A program made the position numbers and the translations under genes. Positions 13,901 to 37,900 of a stretch of 64,000 nt of DNA are shown one piece after another. Numbering within the stretch: position 1 is the stretch's first letter; the number at the start of each line of letters is the position of its first letter. Origin of the DNA: Octopus vulgaris (taxonomy: Eukaryota); assembly GCA_951406725.2 (NCBI GenBank), contig OX597820.1:126232001-126296000 (forward strand). Direction: 5' to 3'. The notes beneath the pieces were generated by a model. The model was not told the DNA's origin, did no database searches, and worked only from the letters and a program-made list of their open reading frames with translations.

Positions 13901-16900
13901 TTGTAAAATTTGAGGAAAATCTTGCTACGTTTTCTGGCAAGTGGATCTCATTCCATACTCAAGTCATATACATACCGTAGATGCTAAGTTCGTCATTATG
14001 AGTAAATTAAAGATTTCCATAATAGTTTGGTGTTGTCAATGATTATGGTAATGAGCTGCTTCGTAAACAATGGTTCCCCACAAAGATACTTTGGCTCAAA
14101 AGAGCGATTGCTATGGAATATTAAAATTTGCTTTGAGAGGAACATTCATACGACAGAAAAAAACGGAAATACTTACCTCCATCTTGACTTTAGCCTCATC
14201 TCCTTCGAACGACCTGCATTAGCAAGAAAACAAAAATAGATACTAAAAACTTTATTAATTAAATAAAATTTAATCGCTGAATAATAATCTATTATTACAT
14301 TCCTATTTTTATTTCGTCTACACCATTTTAGGCGATGAATAGAGTTGAGGAAGCGGAGATACTCTGTTATCTCGGGTTAAAATTAATAAAAAATGTTGAA
14401 GCAAACAAAATATTAAAACTTCTAGACCTAGACAGATTCTGTAGCAAGATATAGTGAAATATAGAATAAATCTACTGGAGAGTGTATCACCCGATAACAA
14501 AGGGTTGTTCTAGTGTGAGAATGAAATATGAATAAATAAATAAACATGAAGCAAATGAAGTGAATGAAGAAGAAATAGATTATAAGTTCAAACGAGAAAA
14601 CTTTATGAATTAATAAGTCAAGTTTAATAATAAAAAAAATATATTAATTTAAATCTTAGACTATGCGGAAAAATACAAAATTAAACAGTATTTTCCTATG
14701 AAAAAGAAAGTAAAATTACTTCAATTCATAAGATATATATAACATACATTTATTAGTAAAAAGGAGTTAGCTTGCTAGAGAAAAATAAAGATAATTTATG
14801 AATTACTTAATTTCTACCAACACAACACAAGAATACAAAGCAGTAACTATAAAATGATTAAAATTTATGCTACATTACGTCAATCAATACACTTTCCAAG
14901 CATTCTCTAAACATATTTTGTTCTGATACACAATTTATATATGTAAGTATTTTCCTGTATGTGTCTCTCTCTATATATGCCAGTATATACAAGTGTATTA
15001 TCGTCACACACATATATACAGACACGCAGATGTACAGACACACAGATGTACAGACGGACACATGTGAATGTGTAGGCATACACACAGAGCAAAATGGATA
15101 AATGTATAAAGCTGTGCGAAAAGAGTTTCTCTCTTAGTGACAATGTTCTCTTTTGTAAATAGAAAAAGCATTTAGTTGGTTATGGTGTGTACTTTATGCA
15201 ATTTATTCACAAAGATGTGTGTTTAGCAACCAGATTGCAAAATTGTCCGAAATGCATATTTTTCTGTTTCAGAGTAATTTTCGGTAATTCTCTATTTTTA
15301 AACTGTATCTGTGAGACTTCGTATACGAAGTGTCATTACTGATTTCCTGAAACACAGGTACACAGTATTCTGAGCTTAGAATTTGTTTACATTAATGAAC
15401 TTGTTGCTCAAGCTAATATAGATGTGAGGCACTCCATAATATATCTTATGTAACATACCTGTTCATTAAAGTATAAATTTATATTTACAAAGAATACCTC
15501 AAGAATTCTTGATTAATAATAAATTTATTGGTTTCTATCATCTCTACTTACAAACATTTAGTTCGACTCTATTTCAAAGAAGAACGTTTTATGTTGGCTT
15601 TTCCTTCTGCTAATTATCTACCTTTAAAGATAAATATACAGTAACAACAATTTGTTACAGGTAATTTTAAATTTCCTAAAGATTGTGAGTGATTAGATGA
15701 ATGTAAACTGGATAAATTCGAGAATTTGAGTAAATCTATCTTATTGAATGTATTATAAGCATAGAGACAATATTTATGTTGGTAAAGAACGTTAAAATTC
15801 TTTGAGTACGTAAGATTCGAATCTATATTGATTTTAAACTATTTAAAAGTATAGTATAGATATTACCTTGTGCATCATTGAATGCTACGAAGCCACTCGC
15901 TTTGTATTGGACACTAGTTCAGTTTCCAGCCCATGTTTCAATATAATATTCACCAAAAGACTATACGTTTCTACCAAAGCCGGCATTCTAAAGAAAGCTG
16001 ACCTCTGCTTGAATGAATTATTTCCGTTACTACATAAAAAGAAAGTCTTTGATGGCGACTCTACGACTCATTTAGGTTTTACCTGTCATTCATATTGTCA
16101 CAGAATAAGAGACCTAAGTTCAACGCTATACAATGTCTTTAACAAATATTCTTTAGGTCATAACGGTCCAGCAAACTTTAAATAGCTATCATGAATAGAT
16201 TCGAATCAAAGCTGCAAGTACTGGGAGGAGCATAGTCAAATTAAAGAGTATTTCGTTCACTTTTAATGTTAATTTCAAGTTATCTTACTTACTTTGGTAA
16301 AACAACTCCAGTGTGTTTTCCCATAATATACTTTGAAATTTGAGAGGAAAACAAGTGTTGACCTAACCATATCTCAGATATTTTTGCAGTTGGAAAAAAC
16401 AAACAAAATAGTGAAATGAGTATTATCACTTTACCATAGACACATTCTACTTGATTCTTTAGAATATACGTGATGTGTGTTTTTTTTCTGAAATTGAAAT
16501 CTAATACTTCCGTCATAACTTGTGTGGTTTACTTTAACTGATTTTCTTTTGAAGTCCCAAAACTAAGCTACAATGCAATTGAATTTGATTTAAACACTAA
16601 CTACAAAATCACTGCAGATCATTTTTTTATCGTTTTCATTCTACATGTATATTCATAGGCTACAAAATAAAGAAAAAACACAACACCTGGAAGTAAAACC
16701 AAACTCAGACTATCTATAGCTACATATGCAAGTGTTAACAGAAAAATAGGAATGAAAAAAATTAATTGAAAGTTGGTGGGCGGAAAAAGATAAGCAAGGA
16801 TGAATAGAGAAAAGTCGGACATATTTTCTCTCTATCTACAAACTACATTTTGTCGTAATCAGTCTAAAAAAAAGTCCAACTTACGATCCGGCTCCTTCAT

Positions 16901-34900: not shown

Positions 34901-37900
34901 AGGTCATAATCCTTGATTTCTGATCCGTTGCAGATACATTCTGGCCACAATGCTCAATTCCAGATGACTTCCGTTCATGGCTTCTGGAAAGAGGTAATAA
35001 TGTAACTGGGCAATGCTATCTGCGTCAGGTTGAAGTCTTATTTAGAAAGATATGTTTATCCTATTCACTTGATTCGGAAACAACTGTTGAGCAAAAGAAC
35101 TGTAGGCAACTCTCTGGAAGTCGAACTCATCAAGTCCCGAAAGTAAGTAGCATCAACTATTTGTCGACATACTGAGTAAGTCAAAGGTCTTGGGGTTAGC
35201 TACCTTTTTATTTTTCATTATTCTAAGTTAGATTTTTGACAAAAGAAAATTATGTGGCATTTTGTTTAATTATTATCGTCTTTAAGTTATATAAAATGCA
35301 TTACAATAAACTTCATTTTCTTGTATGAGATTCTTTCTCATTAGATCGGCCTAATAAAAATGTATTTATTTCCCAGTATACCGCTTCAGTAATTATAATT
35401 TAGTTGGATTAATTGTGTCACTCTCACTTCACGGTTATACACTTTTACTCAAAGATTGTTTCTGCAAGCTATAAACTTAATTATTTAATTTTCTAAATAG
35501 AGTATTTTATAGAAAAAAATAAGACTCTTAAAAAAATTCAATCAAGCTTCCTCTAAAGAAAGTGCAGTCTTTACTACAAAAAGACACATTATGATCCAGA
35601 GCTTAATTTCTACATCTCAAAACATTTTGCAATTAATAGATTAATATCTCAACCCTTGGTATAGATTTGGGTCTTTTATCTCCAACTGGTAGCCGTTTGG
35701 CCTAGTCGTTAAATGAAGTCTTCAGAAGTATTTATTTTCCACTAATGATTTCACTGTAAATCTAGCAAACGTTTTAAACTAAAATACGATATATTTCGAT
35801 TTTAGCGTAATGATGCGATTCCATTATTGAAAACAAAAATATAGATTTGCATTTTATTTTTTTTATGTAATATGTCTAACGATCAAAATTATTTCTTTTT
35901 CGTAGCAGAATGATTTCTTTTTCTTTTCTTTTTGTTGTATTTAATTGTATTGTTTGTTCTATTGTACTTTTTTGCGGTTTTGTTTTGTTGTTGTTTTTTC
36001 AGATTTCTATTAAATCTTGATTAATTTCTTTTCAACTACATTATCGTCTGCAATTATTTTTTTTAATATAATTTATTTCCTGAAAATTCTTTGTTCGTCG
36101 ATCTTAATGTCTGAATTATGGTGGCTCACATATTGCAATCTTATTAAATAATTAATCGTATTAAGTGAATCCAAAAATAATAATTTTTGTGCTTAGTTAT
36201 CACAGAAGATAAATTAATATTTCAAAATTATTCTTCTACTACATTCTTTCTCTATATCGATTGTTGTCGGTATCACACATATACATAACTAAAAGAATTG
36301 CATAGACGAGTGTAAGGTGAGAGGAAGAAATAGAACAATGAAAGTCTTTAAGATGGATTTTGGTAAAAACTGACTAAGACTAGAATAAGAAAATCATTCG
36401 TTAATTAAACTACCATACAAGTCAACGTGCATTTTGAAAGTGGTGAAAAAGGAGAGGGCATTAAAGATTTCATCTATATTTCTATTACTATACTTACTCA
36501 GTCTGTTCCTCACTGTGAAATAGAACAAGAAATTAAGAAAAAATGATTTTATTTAATTGCTGGATATATCAAAGAAAATACAAGAATTTAAACAAAAAAT
36601 ACAAATTCGAAACGAAAAGGAAGTGTGAAAATATCTTTTAAAGACTTGGACTTAACTCTAATTCGTATTTATGTGAACTAAAACAACAAAGGAAAAAAAT
36701 TTAAAAAACACGAATAATACATTCGTATATTTAGAAATATTGATTATATCCATTTGGTCTTTAGACATTTTGCTTTTAATTTTGGAATGAGAAACAAAAT
36801 CGCCCGTTTAATATCTCAGATACAATTTTCATTGTTCCTGGAAAAGTGGCAAACTCAACTCCGAGGAATCCGCACCGATCTGGATACTTATAATGAAACC
36901 GCACTAAAGCAATTTATCCATGGTTCCTACTTATTAAACTAACTCATAAGACGTACACTATAGAATTGGTAACAAATGTTTCCGTCAATAATTCGAGTTA
37001 AAAATTTCGAGATGTTTTTAGATTGGATAATCAAATTAACACATCGATTTGCATCAGTGCAATAATAGATTAGAAAAATCACTTTTTGTTTCTATTCTTT
37101 CTTGTAAGATGAAGGAAAATTTCCATTTAAATGTGAGACATCGTAACAAGTTATGTCAATGAAAATAATACGATGGTTTAGTGTCAACACCAGATGACGT
37201 TCGAAATTTTCAACAGATTAAAAACGTGTTAGACTTGTTGTTCCAGCTGCTCGCTATATTTATCCTAATATGATTTCATTAACAATATGAATCTTAGTAT
37301 TTTATTAGTAGAAATGTGTTTCCCTTGTAACTCTCTATCTCTCTCACACCCCTACATATATATGCGTGTGAGTGTATGTATATGTGTATGTAACAAATTC
37401 ATAGTGCACTAGACACCATTTTCTTTTCCTTGGTTTTCTTTTTGTGGTTTCATAATTTGAAATGCAGCGTATAAGCATAATTTCTTAATAAATATACAAT
37501 CTAGACTGTTTAGCCTGTACTGAAAAAAAACAAAGAAAGTGGTTATATTCAGATTTCATCGCACAGTTGGAAAACAAACTAATAAAAAGGAGAGTATTCT
37601 TTTCACTGATGAAGCTTTAACGGGGCTAGAAACTAGCCAGATGTTTTACCACAAACTACACAACTATTTTATGTAGCATGGTTACTCCAAACACCAGAAT
37701 GTACAGAGAGACAAAATACGCTTTCAAAAAGTGAGTAGTATAATAATTGAGGGAACTTAAAGTTACAGGCATCTAAAAAGAATTCTGTTAGAATACAAAA
37801 ATACAAATATGATGATAAAAGAACAGAATCTTCAAACATATAAAAGATTGTTTGCTTCATATTCTTACACAATTATATATTAGTGTGAATGTTCGTTTAA

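Follow-up and report, generated by a model that had tools for sequence, protein, structure and literature searches.

Nine frame-preserving, alternatively spliced microexons in the variable N-terminal region of Octopus troponin T

The troponin T (TnT) gene of Octopus vulgaris lies on the minus strand of the stretch analysed here (contig OX597820.1 of assembly GCA_951406725.2, positions 126,232,001 to 126,296,000; 64,000 nucleotides (nt), hereafter the window). Between the first coding exon, which carries the ATG, and the conserved core, the gene contains nine microexons, E1 to E9, that are real, alternatively spliced, and frame-preserving. This cassette is a large new member of the textbook variable region at the N-terminus of TnT and has every testable defining feature of that region: placement before the core, short symmetric exons of one phase, acidic peptides that shift charge and isoelectric point, and alternative splicing in vivo. 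By analogy with vertebrate and insect TnT, the cassette probably adjusts how the thin filament is regulated in different muscles or life stages.

The nine microexons and their splicing

The 210-nt exon at 6380-6171 carries the Pfam Troponin domain (PF00992, E 1e-11) and shows 100% identity to Octopus sinensis and O. bimaculoides troponin T; both the domain and the orthology to named troponin T proteins place the gene in this family. Compared exon by exon with O. sinensis isoform X1 (XP_029638593), the 1209-nt coding sequence specifies 400 of 402 equal residues, with a single difference among the nine microexon peptides. The assignment to a cephalopod troponin T, made at first from the DNA letters alone, is thereby secured. 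A search of the 2.8-Gb genome for troponin T returned one matching locus, and isoform diversity would therefore have to arise by splicing.

All nine microexons lie between the ATG exon and the exon at 14213-14177, are separated by introns of 754-4235 nt, and are bounded by AG acceptors and GTAAG(T/A) donors. With 20 coding nt in the ATG exon, every junction from there through to the 37-nt exon is in phase 2. None of the 512 exon subsets contains a stop, and the 512 encoded peptides are all distinct. The 79 cassette residues include 21 Glu, 2 Asp, and 1 His, with no Lys or Arg. The initial annotation had described nine exons of 15, 24, 27, 30, 27, 30, 27, 27, and 30 nt at these positions, with YAG/GTAAG sites, lengths that are multiples of 3, one shared phase, no skipping pattern that forms a stop, and no basic residues, and we found all of this to be correct.

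To these features we added a splice-site scan over 14214-37992 for a T-rich tract followed by YAG, 9-51 nt, and GTAAG. Of the 8 candidates on the sense strand, every one had a length divisible by 3, was open in phase 2, and belonged to the nine, E8 having failed the T filter. On the antisense strand there were 3 candidates, none a multiple of 3, and 200 block shuffles gave a mean of 0.65 and a maximum of 4, a significance that is somewhat overstated because the filters were set with the exons already known. The RNA evidence is independent of the scan. Chance splice-site matches or an artefact were rejected on the basis of contig joints, RefSeq models, and the scan compared with its shuffles. 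The window and the 30 kb upstream of it contained no additional copies of the nine exons within ~25% mismatch.

Alternative splicing was visible in assembled contigs from 4 of 24 listed sequencing runs (presumed to be RNA although none is registered as such, from 4 studies). The contigs were mapped on 26215-38145, a stretch comprising the ATG exon and the first five microexons, E1-E5; E6, E7, and E8 lie outside this stretch and rest on RefSeq models of sister species. Three of the four runs, from 3 studies, gave spliced joints with canonical intron ends and differing patterns; run X4 had no contig on the mapped stretch and is not evidence either way. In run X1, one 158-nt contig joined an exon of the 5' untranslated region (UTR), the ATG exon, E1, E3, and E4, followed by 8 letters that fit the start of E9. 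Run X7 joined the ATG exon, E1, and E9, the 15 letters shown at its loose end being unique in the window and equal to E9. Run X14 contained the joints ATG-E1, E1-E3, E3-E4, and E4-E5. These junctions show the use of E1, E3, E4, E5, and E9 and that E2-E8 can be skipped together; no E2 junction was seen in the contigs covering its stretch, which is not evidence of absence.

RefSeq models rest on RNA-seq junctions, and their long-range exon combinations are in part deduced from short reads; the O. sinensis and O. bimaculoides isoforms there are automatic models only. From two Octopus protein clusters of 36 and 51 members, we decoded all 30 models listed, 15 from each cluster (14 O. sinensis and 16 O. 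bimaculoides). Among those listed, the numbers of isoforms named "troponin T, skeletal muscle" reach X49 in O. sinensis and X34 in O. bimaculoides. O. sinensis isoform X1 (402 amino acids, aa) contains all nine exons and isoform X49 (323 aa) contains none, a difference of exactly 79 aa, and each of the nine exons is both included and skipped among the O. sinensis models listed. Standard annotation had been expected to miss these exons; because all nine occur in RefSeq isoforms of O. sinensis, it did not. The 30 models show 27 distinct patterns and 30 of the 55 possible junctions. Together with the joints that differ between runs, they show alternative splicing in vivo and bear out the initial claim of many combinations.

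Inclusion looks nested rather than free. In the 30 models, E5 (10/10), E6 (7/7), and E7 (8/8) occurred only with E4, E7 only with E9 (8/8), and E8 only with E7 (4/4). These rules permit 144 of the 512 patterns, so that the repertoire looks limited to at most ~144 and not 512. The two full contig patterns (ATG-E1-E3-E4-E9 and ATG-E1-E9) obey the rules, and both are absent from the 30 models; therefore, the repertoire exceeds the sample. This absence and the lack of a stop in any subset would also suit a 2^9 combinatorial code without any constraint that arose de novo in cephalopods and specifies muscle identity. Such a code is highly improbable in view of the nested dependence, the RefSeq numbering seen only up to X49 and X34, and the phase-2 cassette also found in gastropods and bivalves. 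The 512 in-frame variants proposed earlier thus stand as regards the frame, the freedom from stops, and the 0-79 aa range, whereas their free combination looks overstated.

Table 1. Coding exons of the O. vulgaris troponin T gene in window positions, with inclusion counts among the RefSeq models listed
Feature	Position	Strand	Remarks
First coding exon	37993..38039	-	47 nt, of which 20 coding from the ATG at 38012; phase 2 at its end
Microexon E1	36498..36512	-	15 nt; core EEQT; junctions in runs X1, X7, X14; 26/30 models
Microexon E2	33952..33975	-	24 nt; core ESPASGF; 17/30 models; skipped in every contig junction
Microexon E3	30866..30892	-	27 nt; core QSTEETSQ; joints in runs X1, X14; 19/30 models
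Microexon E4	30082..30111	-	30 nt; core ETVEEPAAP; joints E3-E4, E4-E5; 20/30 models; paralog of E5, E6
Microexon E5	26894..26920	-	27 nt; core ETVEEHTP; joint E4-E5 in run X14; 10/30 models; tandem duplicate
Microexon E6	25977..26006	-	30 nt; core ETVEEPPAP; 7/30 models; tandem duplicate
Microexon E7	21715..21741	-	27 nt; core ETTEVPSN; 8/30 models; paralog of E8
Microexon E8	20875..20901	-	27 nt; core DTTEVSNT; 4/14 O. sinensis, 0/16 O. bimaculoides models; duplicate of E7
Microexon E9	16885..16914	-	30 nt; core STGGDEGAG; 16/30 models; loose ends of runs X7, X1 map here
First constitutive core exon	14177..14213	-	37 nt; starts in phase 2; in 30/30 models listed
Remaining eight coding exons of TnT core	1721..10663	-	matched exon by exon to O. 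sinensis isoform X1
Core exons	10663-10547, 9205-9119, 8434-8285, 6380-6171	-	PF00992 in 6380-6171
Core exons, 3' end	4856-4816, 4481-4437, 2950-2914, 1948-1721	-	stop in 1948-1721

Exon duplication and molluscan relatives

E4, E5, and E6 are tandem duplicates whose intron flanks are 67-78% identical (75% over 484 nt between the E6 and E4 units), and E7 and E8 share 78% identity across 69 nt. In the E4/E5/E6 alignment, exons and splice sites are better preserved than the flanks. The cassette is a clean example of exon birth via tandem duplication inside a phase-permissive intron. E8 is probably the youngest exon; it is missing from the 16 O. bimaculoides models listed, possibly reflecting a recent exon birth or a loss, and O. 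bimaculoides isoform X2 has only 388 aa, a length that would fit an eight-exon set in that species. Mutually exclusive splicing of the duplicates, of the Dscam or Mhc type with one paralog per transcript, was ruled out by the E4-E5 joint in run X14 and by models that contain E4, E5, and E6 or E7 and E8 together.

About 70-90 nt downstream of E4, E5, and E6, an 18-nt element with a YGCY word is near-invariant in all three introns, in surroundings that have diverged. It is a candidate intronic splicing element.

Argonauta has E1, E3 (the same peptide), one variant exon, and an E9-like peptide, and an E1-like optional peptide occurs at the same place in a squid-group transcript, scallops, and mussels. 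Optional acidic N-terminal segments were found at the same position in seven genera (Haliotis, Physella, Biomphalaria, Argopecten, Pecten, Mizuhopecten, and Mytilus), with 4 counted in the models of Haliotis, 3 in Physella, and 3 in Argopecten. Two scallop records of the cDNA type exist with (BAA22851) and without (BAA22850) a six-residue exon. The junction residue in Haliotis and M. californianus varies with the partner exon on both sides, consistent with phase 2 and excluding phases 0 and 1, as deduced from protein models and not from genomic DNA. The arthropod and insect proteins retrieved do not fix the exon phase.

Because optional segments occur in both gastropods and bivalves and phase 2 in Haliotis and M. 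californianus, the arrangement of a short ATG exon followed by a phase-2 intron with a few optional acidic mini-exons is likely ancestral in molluscs. In Haliotis, Physella, Argopecten, Mytilus, and Mizuhopecten, the optional exons follow a first exon of 6-8 residues, are acidic and freely skipped as in the octopus, and include an E1-like peptide. They differ in number (1-4 seen per species rather than nine), in that some contain Lys or Arg, and in sequence, no relationship being recognisable except for E1. The octopod-specific part looks like an expansion, achieved partly by tandem duplication (E4/E5/E6 and E7/E8). The proposal of a cassette independently built in a cephalopod therefore has to be narrowed to this expansion, as optional cassettes also occur in gastropods and bivalves. 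A protein search with the N-terminal region returned 6 cephalopod-type clusters only and no squid-group protein with a long cassette, a weak result for a query of such small length and low complexity.

Charge and the proposed role

From isoform X49 to isoform X1 of O. sinensis, the net charge changes from -6 to -28 and the isoelectric point (pI) from 5.89 to 5.01. In the mechanism that we propose, splicing would add 0-79 acidic residues to the front end of TnT. A symmetric phase-2 exon duplicated in a phase-2 intron would keep the frame, so that octopods could grow the set to nine. Nested inclusion would produce a graded ladder of length and charge, not a 512-state code, and this ladder, if regulated by tissue or stage, would shift Ca2+ sensitivity, cooperativity, pH tolerance, or Ca2+ buffering. 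Passages on vertebrate TnT describe an N-terminal region that binds no other myofilament protein yet modulates conformation (PMC13322953), with more acidic splice forms conferring higher Ca2+ sensitivity and acid tolerance (PMC13322953, PMC8559874). For insect TnT, altered Ca2+ sensitivity and power of splice forms are reported in parts of PMC7581897 and PMC2238819, and sections of PMC12040844 and PMC5963113 establish a functional troponin in scallop thin filaments.

The analogy with TNNT3 and insect TnT drawn in the initial annotation proved apt. Exons 4-8 and the fetal exon of vertebrate TNNT3 are likewise short, acidic, optional, and of one phase between the first coding exon and the core, and their combinatorial inclusion alters size and pI, according to excerpts of PMC2447309 and PMC8559874. 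TNNT3 has five such exons plus the fetal exon, compared with nine in the octopus, and there are three vertebrate TnT genes, compared with apparently one. Regulation and functional effect have been demonstrated in vertebrates; in the octopus, both are putative. The avian P exons of TNNT3 (the Tx segment) are also a lineage-specific expansion of mini-exons, up to seven in the account given in part of PMC7581897. They consist of His-Glu repeats; the octopus cassette lacks this motif, having one His in 79 aa, and contains five unrelated exon types, two of them duplicated. Insect TnT (Drosophila upheld exon 3 and a 3-nt microexon; dragonfly forms) shares a single gene and optional Glu-rich N-terminal exons, with muscle-type use and effects on Ca2+ sensitivity reported in passages of PMC7581897 and PMC2238819, and butterfly models vary similarly at the N-terminus. 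Insects differ in having fewer exons in the models examined and in the mutually exclusive exons 10A/10B and the long Glu-rich tail described in a section of PMC13322953.

Several points weigh against a tuning role. The contigs, being unitigs, give neither levels nor tissues, so no regulation is visible from them. The nesting on which the ladder depends has p-values of 0.002-0.04, which are post hoc, carry no correction for the 72 ordered pairs, combine two species, and come from a non-random list. A general high- versus low-inclusion state would yield the same nested picture, and the near-identical E4, E5, and E6 may be confused by short reads. Molluscan muscle is classed as myosin-regulated, with too little troponin, in part of PMC2226187, and TnT tuning may matter less in the octopus for that reason. 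An excerpt of PMC4757648 reports very few protein differences between squid arm and tentacle on SDS-PAGE. Six sequences grouping with Sepia (97/97 support) have short N-termini, along with acidic C-terminal tails of 51-73 aa (17-28 Asp or Glu). Finally, MBNL, RBFOX, and QKI motifs around the microexons showed no clear enrichment over constitutive exons: YGCY words numbered 23 upstream and 20 downstream compared with 25 and 21, and GCATG and ACTAAY were near zero, counts that are uninformative.

Upstream of the nine microexons, the 250-nt flanks contained 58 TGTG/TGTT words, where 31 were expected; nine constitutive exons had 22. This excess could represent CELF-type sites or merely a TG microsatellite common to the E4-E6 duplicates. 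In the neural microexon programme (SRRM4/eMIC type), UGC lies close upstream of the 3' splice site; TGC occurs within 30 nt in 2 of the nine octopus exons, and the other 7 lack this motif.

The exons could be real and alternatively spliced and their variation still largely neutral, with stochastic skipping in a tolerant, acidic, low-complexity spacer in which frame-safe duplicates pile up. Fast turnover of exon number and sequence among molluscs, E8 being unseen in the 16 O. bimaculoides models listed, the vertebrate region that in a passage of PMC13322953 binds no other myofilament protein, and the dominance of myosin control in molluscs (part of PMC2226187) would all suit this explanation. 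We nonetheless regard it as unlikely, given the strict exclusion of Lys and Arg from 79 residues, the better preservation of the E4/E5/E6 exons and splice sites than of their flanks, and the sharp differences between runs (only E1-E9 in run X7; E3-E4-E5 in run X14), though unitigs are not quantitative.

Alternatively, the acidic segment might act mainly as a myofilament buffer of Ca2+ and other cations or as a lattice-spacing element, a counterpart to the tail, rich in Glu, at the C-terminus in insects and the squid group and not an allosteric tuner. The TnT tails of three octopods measure only 30-36 aa (10-13 Asp or Glu; 1721-1815 in the window), against the long tails and short N-termini of the sequences grouping with Sepia, and portions of PMC7581897 describe Ca2+ binding by avian P-exon segments and propose the insect tail as a Ca2+ reservoir. 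The squid-group set consists of a single assembled transcript per sample, however, which may hide longer N-terminal forms; the Pro/Thr/Ser-rich octopus exons are less Glu-dense, and their Ca2+ binding is putative. Buffering is also compatible with tuning rather than exclusive of it. As the main function, we judge it improbable. The short octopod C-terminal tail, set against the long one of the squid group, is a mirror image of the N-terminal cassette.

The single TnT gene, with its ladder of 0-79 residues and 22-23 charges, is an obvious candidate for tissue-specific control of activation in octopus muscle, and one that is cheap to test, as one primer pair covers the whole cassette. A section of PMC4757648 reports that every cephalopod muscle tested, including those of O. 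bimaculoides, expresses the full set of myosin heavy chain isoforms; for this reason, contraction speed in cephalopods is thought to be set by ultrastructure. More speculatively, octopods might tune muscle types via TnT by having moved the acidic segment from a fixed C-terminal tail, the one that is long in squid and cuttlefish, to an N-terminal ladder of nine steps that continues to grow by exon duplication. We regard this view as less likely than not. If true, the ladder would be the tissue-specific myofilament isoform that studies of cephalopod myosin did not find. The surprise is modest, because troponin T has this design in textbooks and RefSeq already contains the exons. No publication describing the octopus cassette was found in the literature searched, in which subscription journals were thinly covered and supplements excluded, and the isoform tables of cephalopod genome papers could already list these exons.

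Remaining features of the locus

A non-coding first exon, from contig position 126320682, lies ~24.7 kb past the window end and is spliced to window position 38039 in 3 runs; the UTR piece of the contigs matches the genome in 30 of 30 letters. The ATG exon, to which it is joined, is covered by contigs of 3 runs with 0 mismatched letters where listed. The first intron thus spans ~50 kb, and positions 38040-64000 of the window are intron, with no convincing open reading frame there.

At 37353-37392 and 26954-26987, many contigs that are 90-95% alike map at high depth, marking dispersed repeats and not exons. The intron before the 9205 exon holds a tandem array at ~9500-9650, with ~7 copies of a GC-rich unit of 21-22 nt. 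The Pfam search gave a second, weak PF00992 match at 1161197-1161319 of the same contig, which may be an exon of troponin I. Among public records, animal troponin T sequences deposited as Enterococcus, Klebsiella, Corynebacterium, and Clostridium probably represent contamination.

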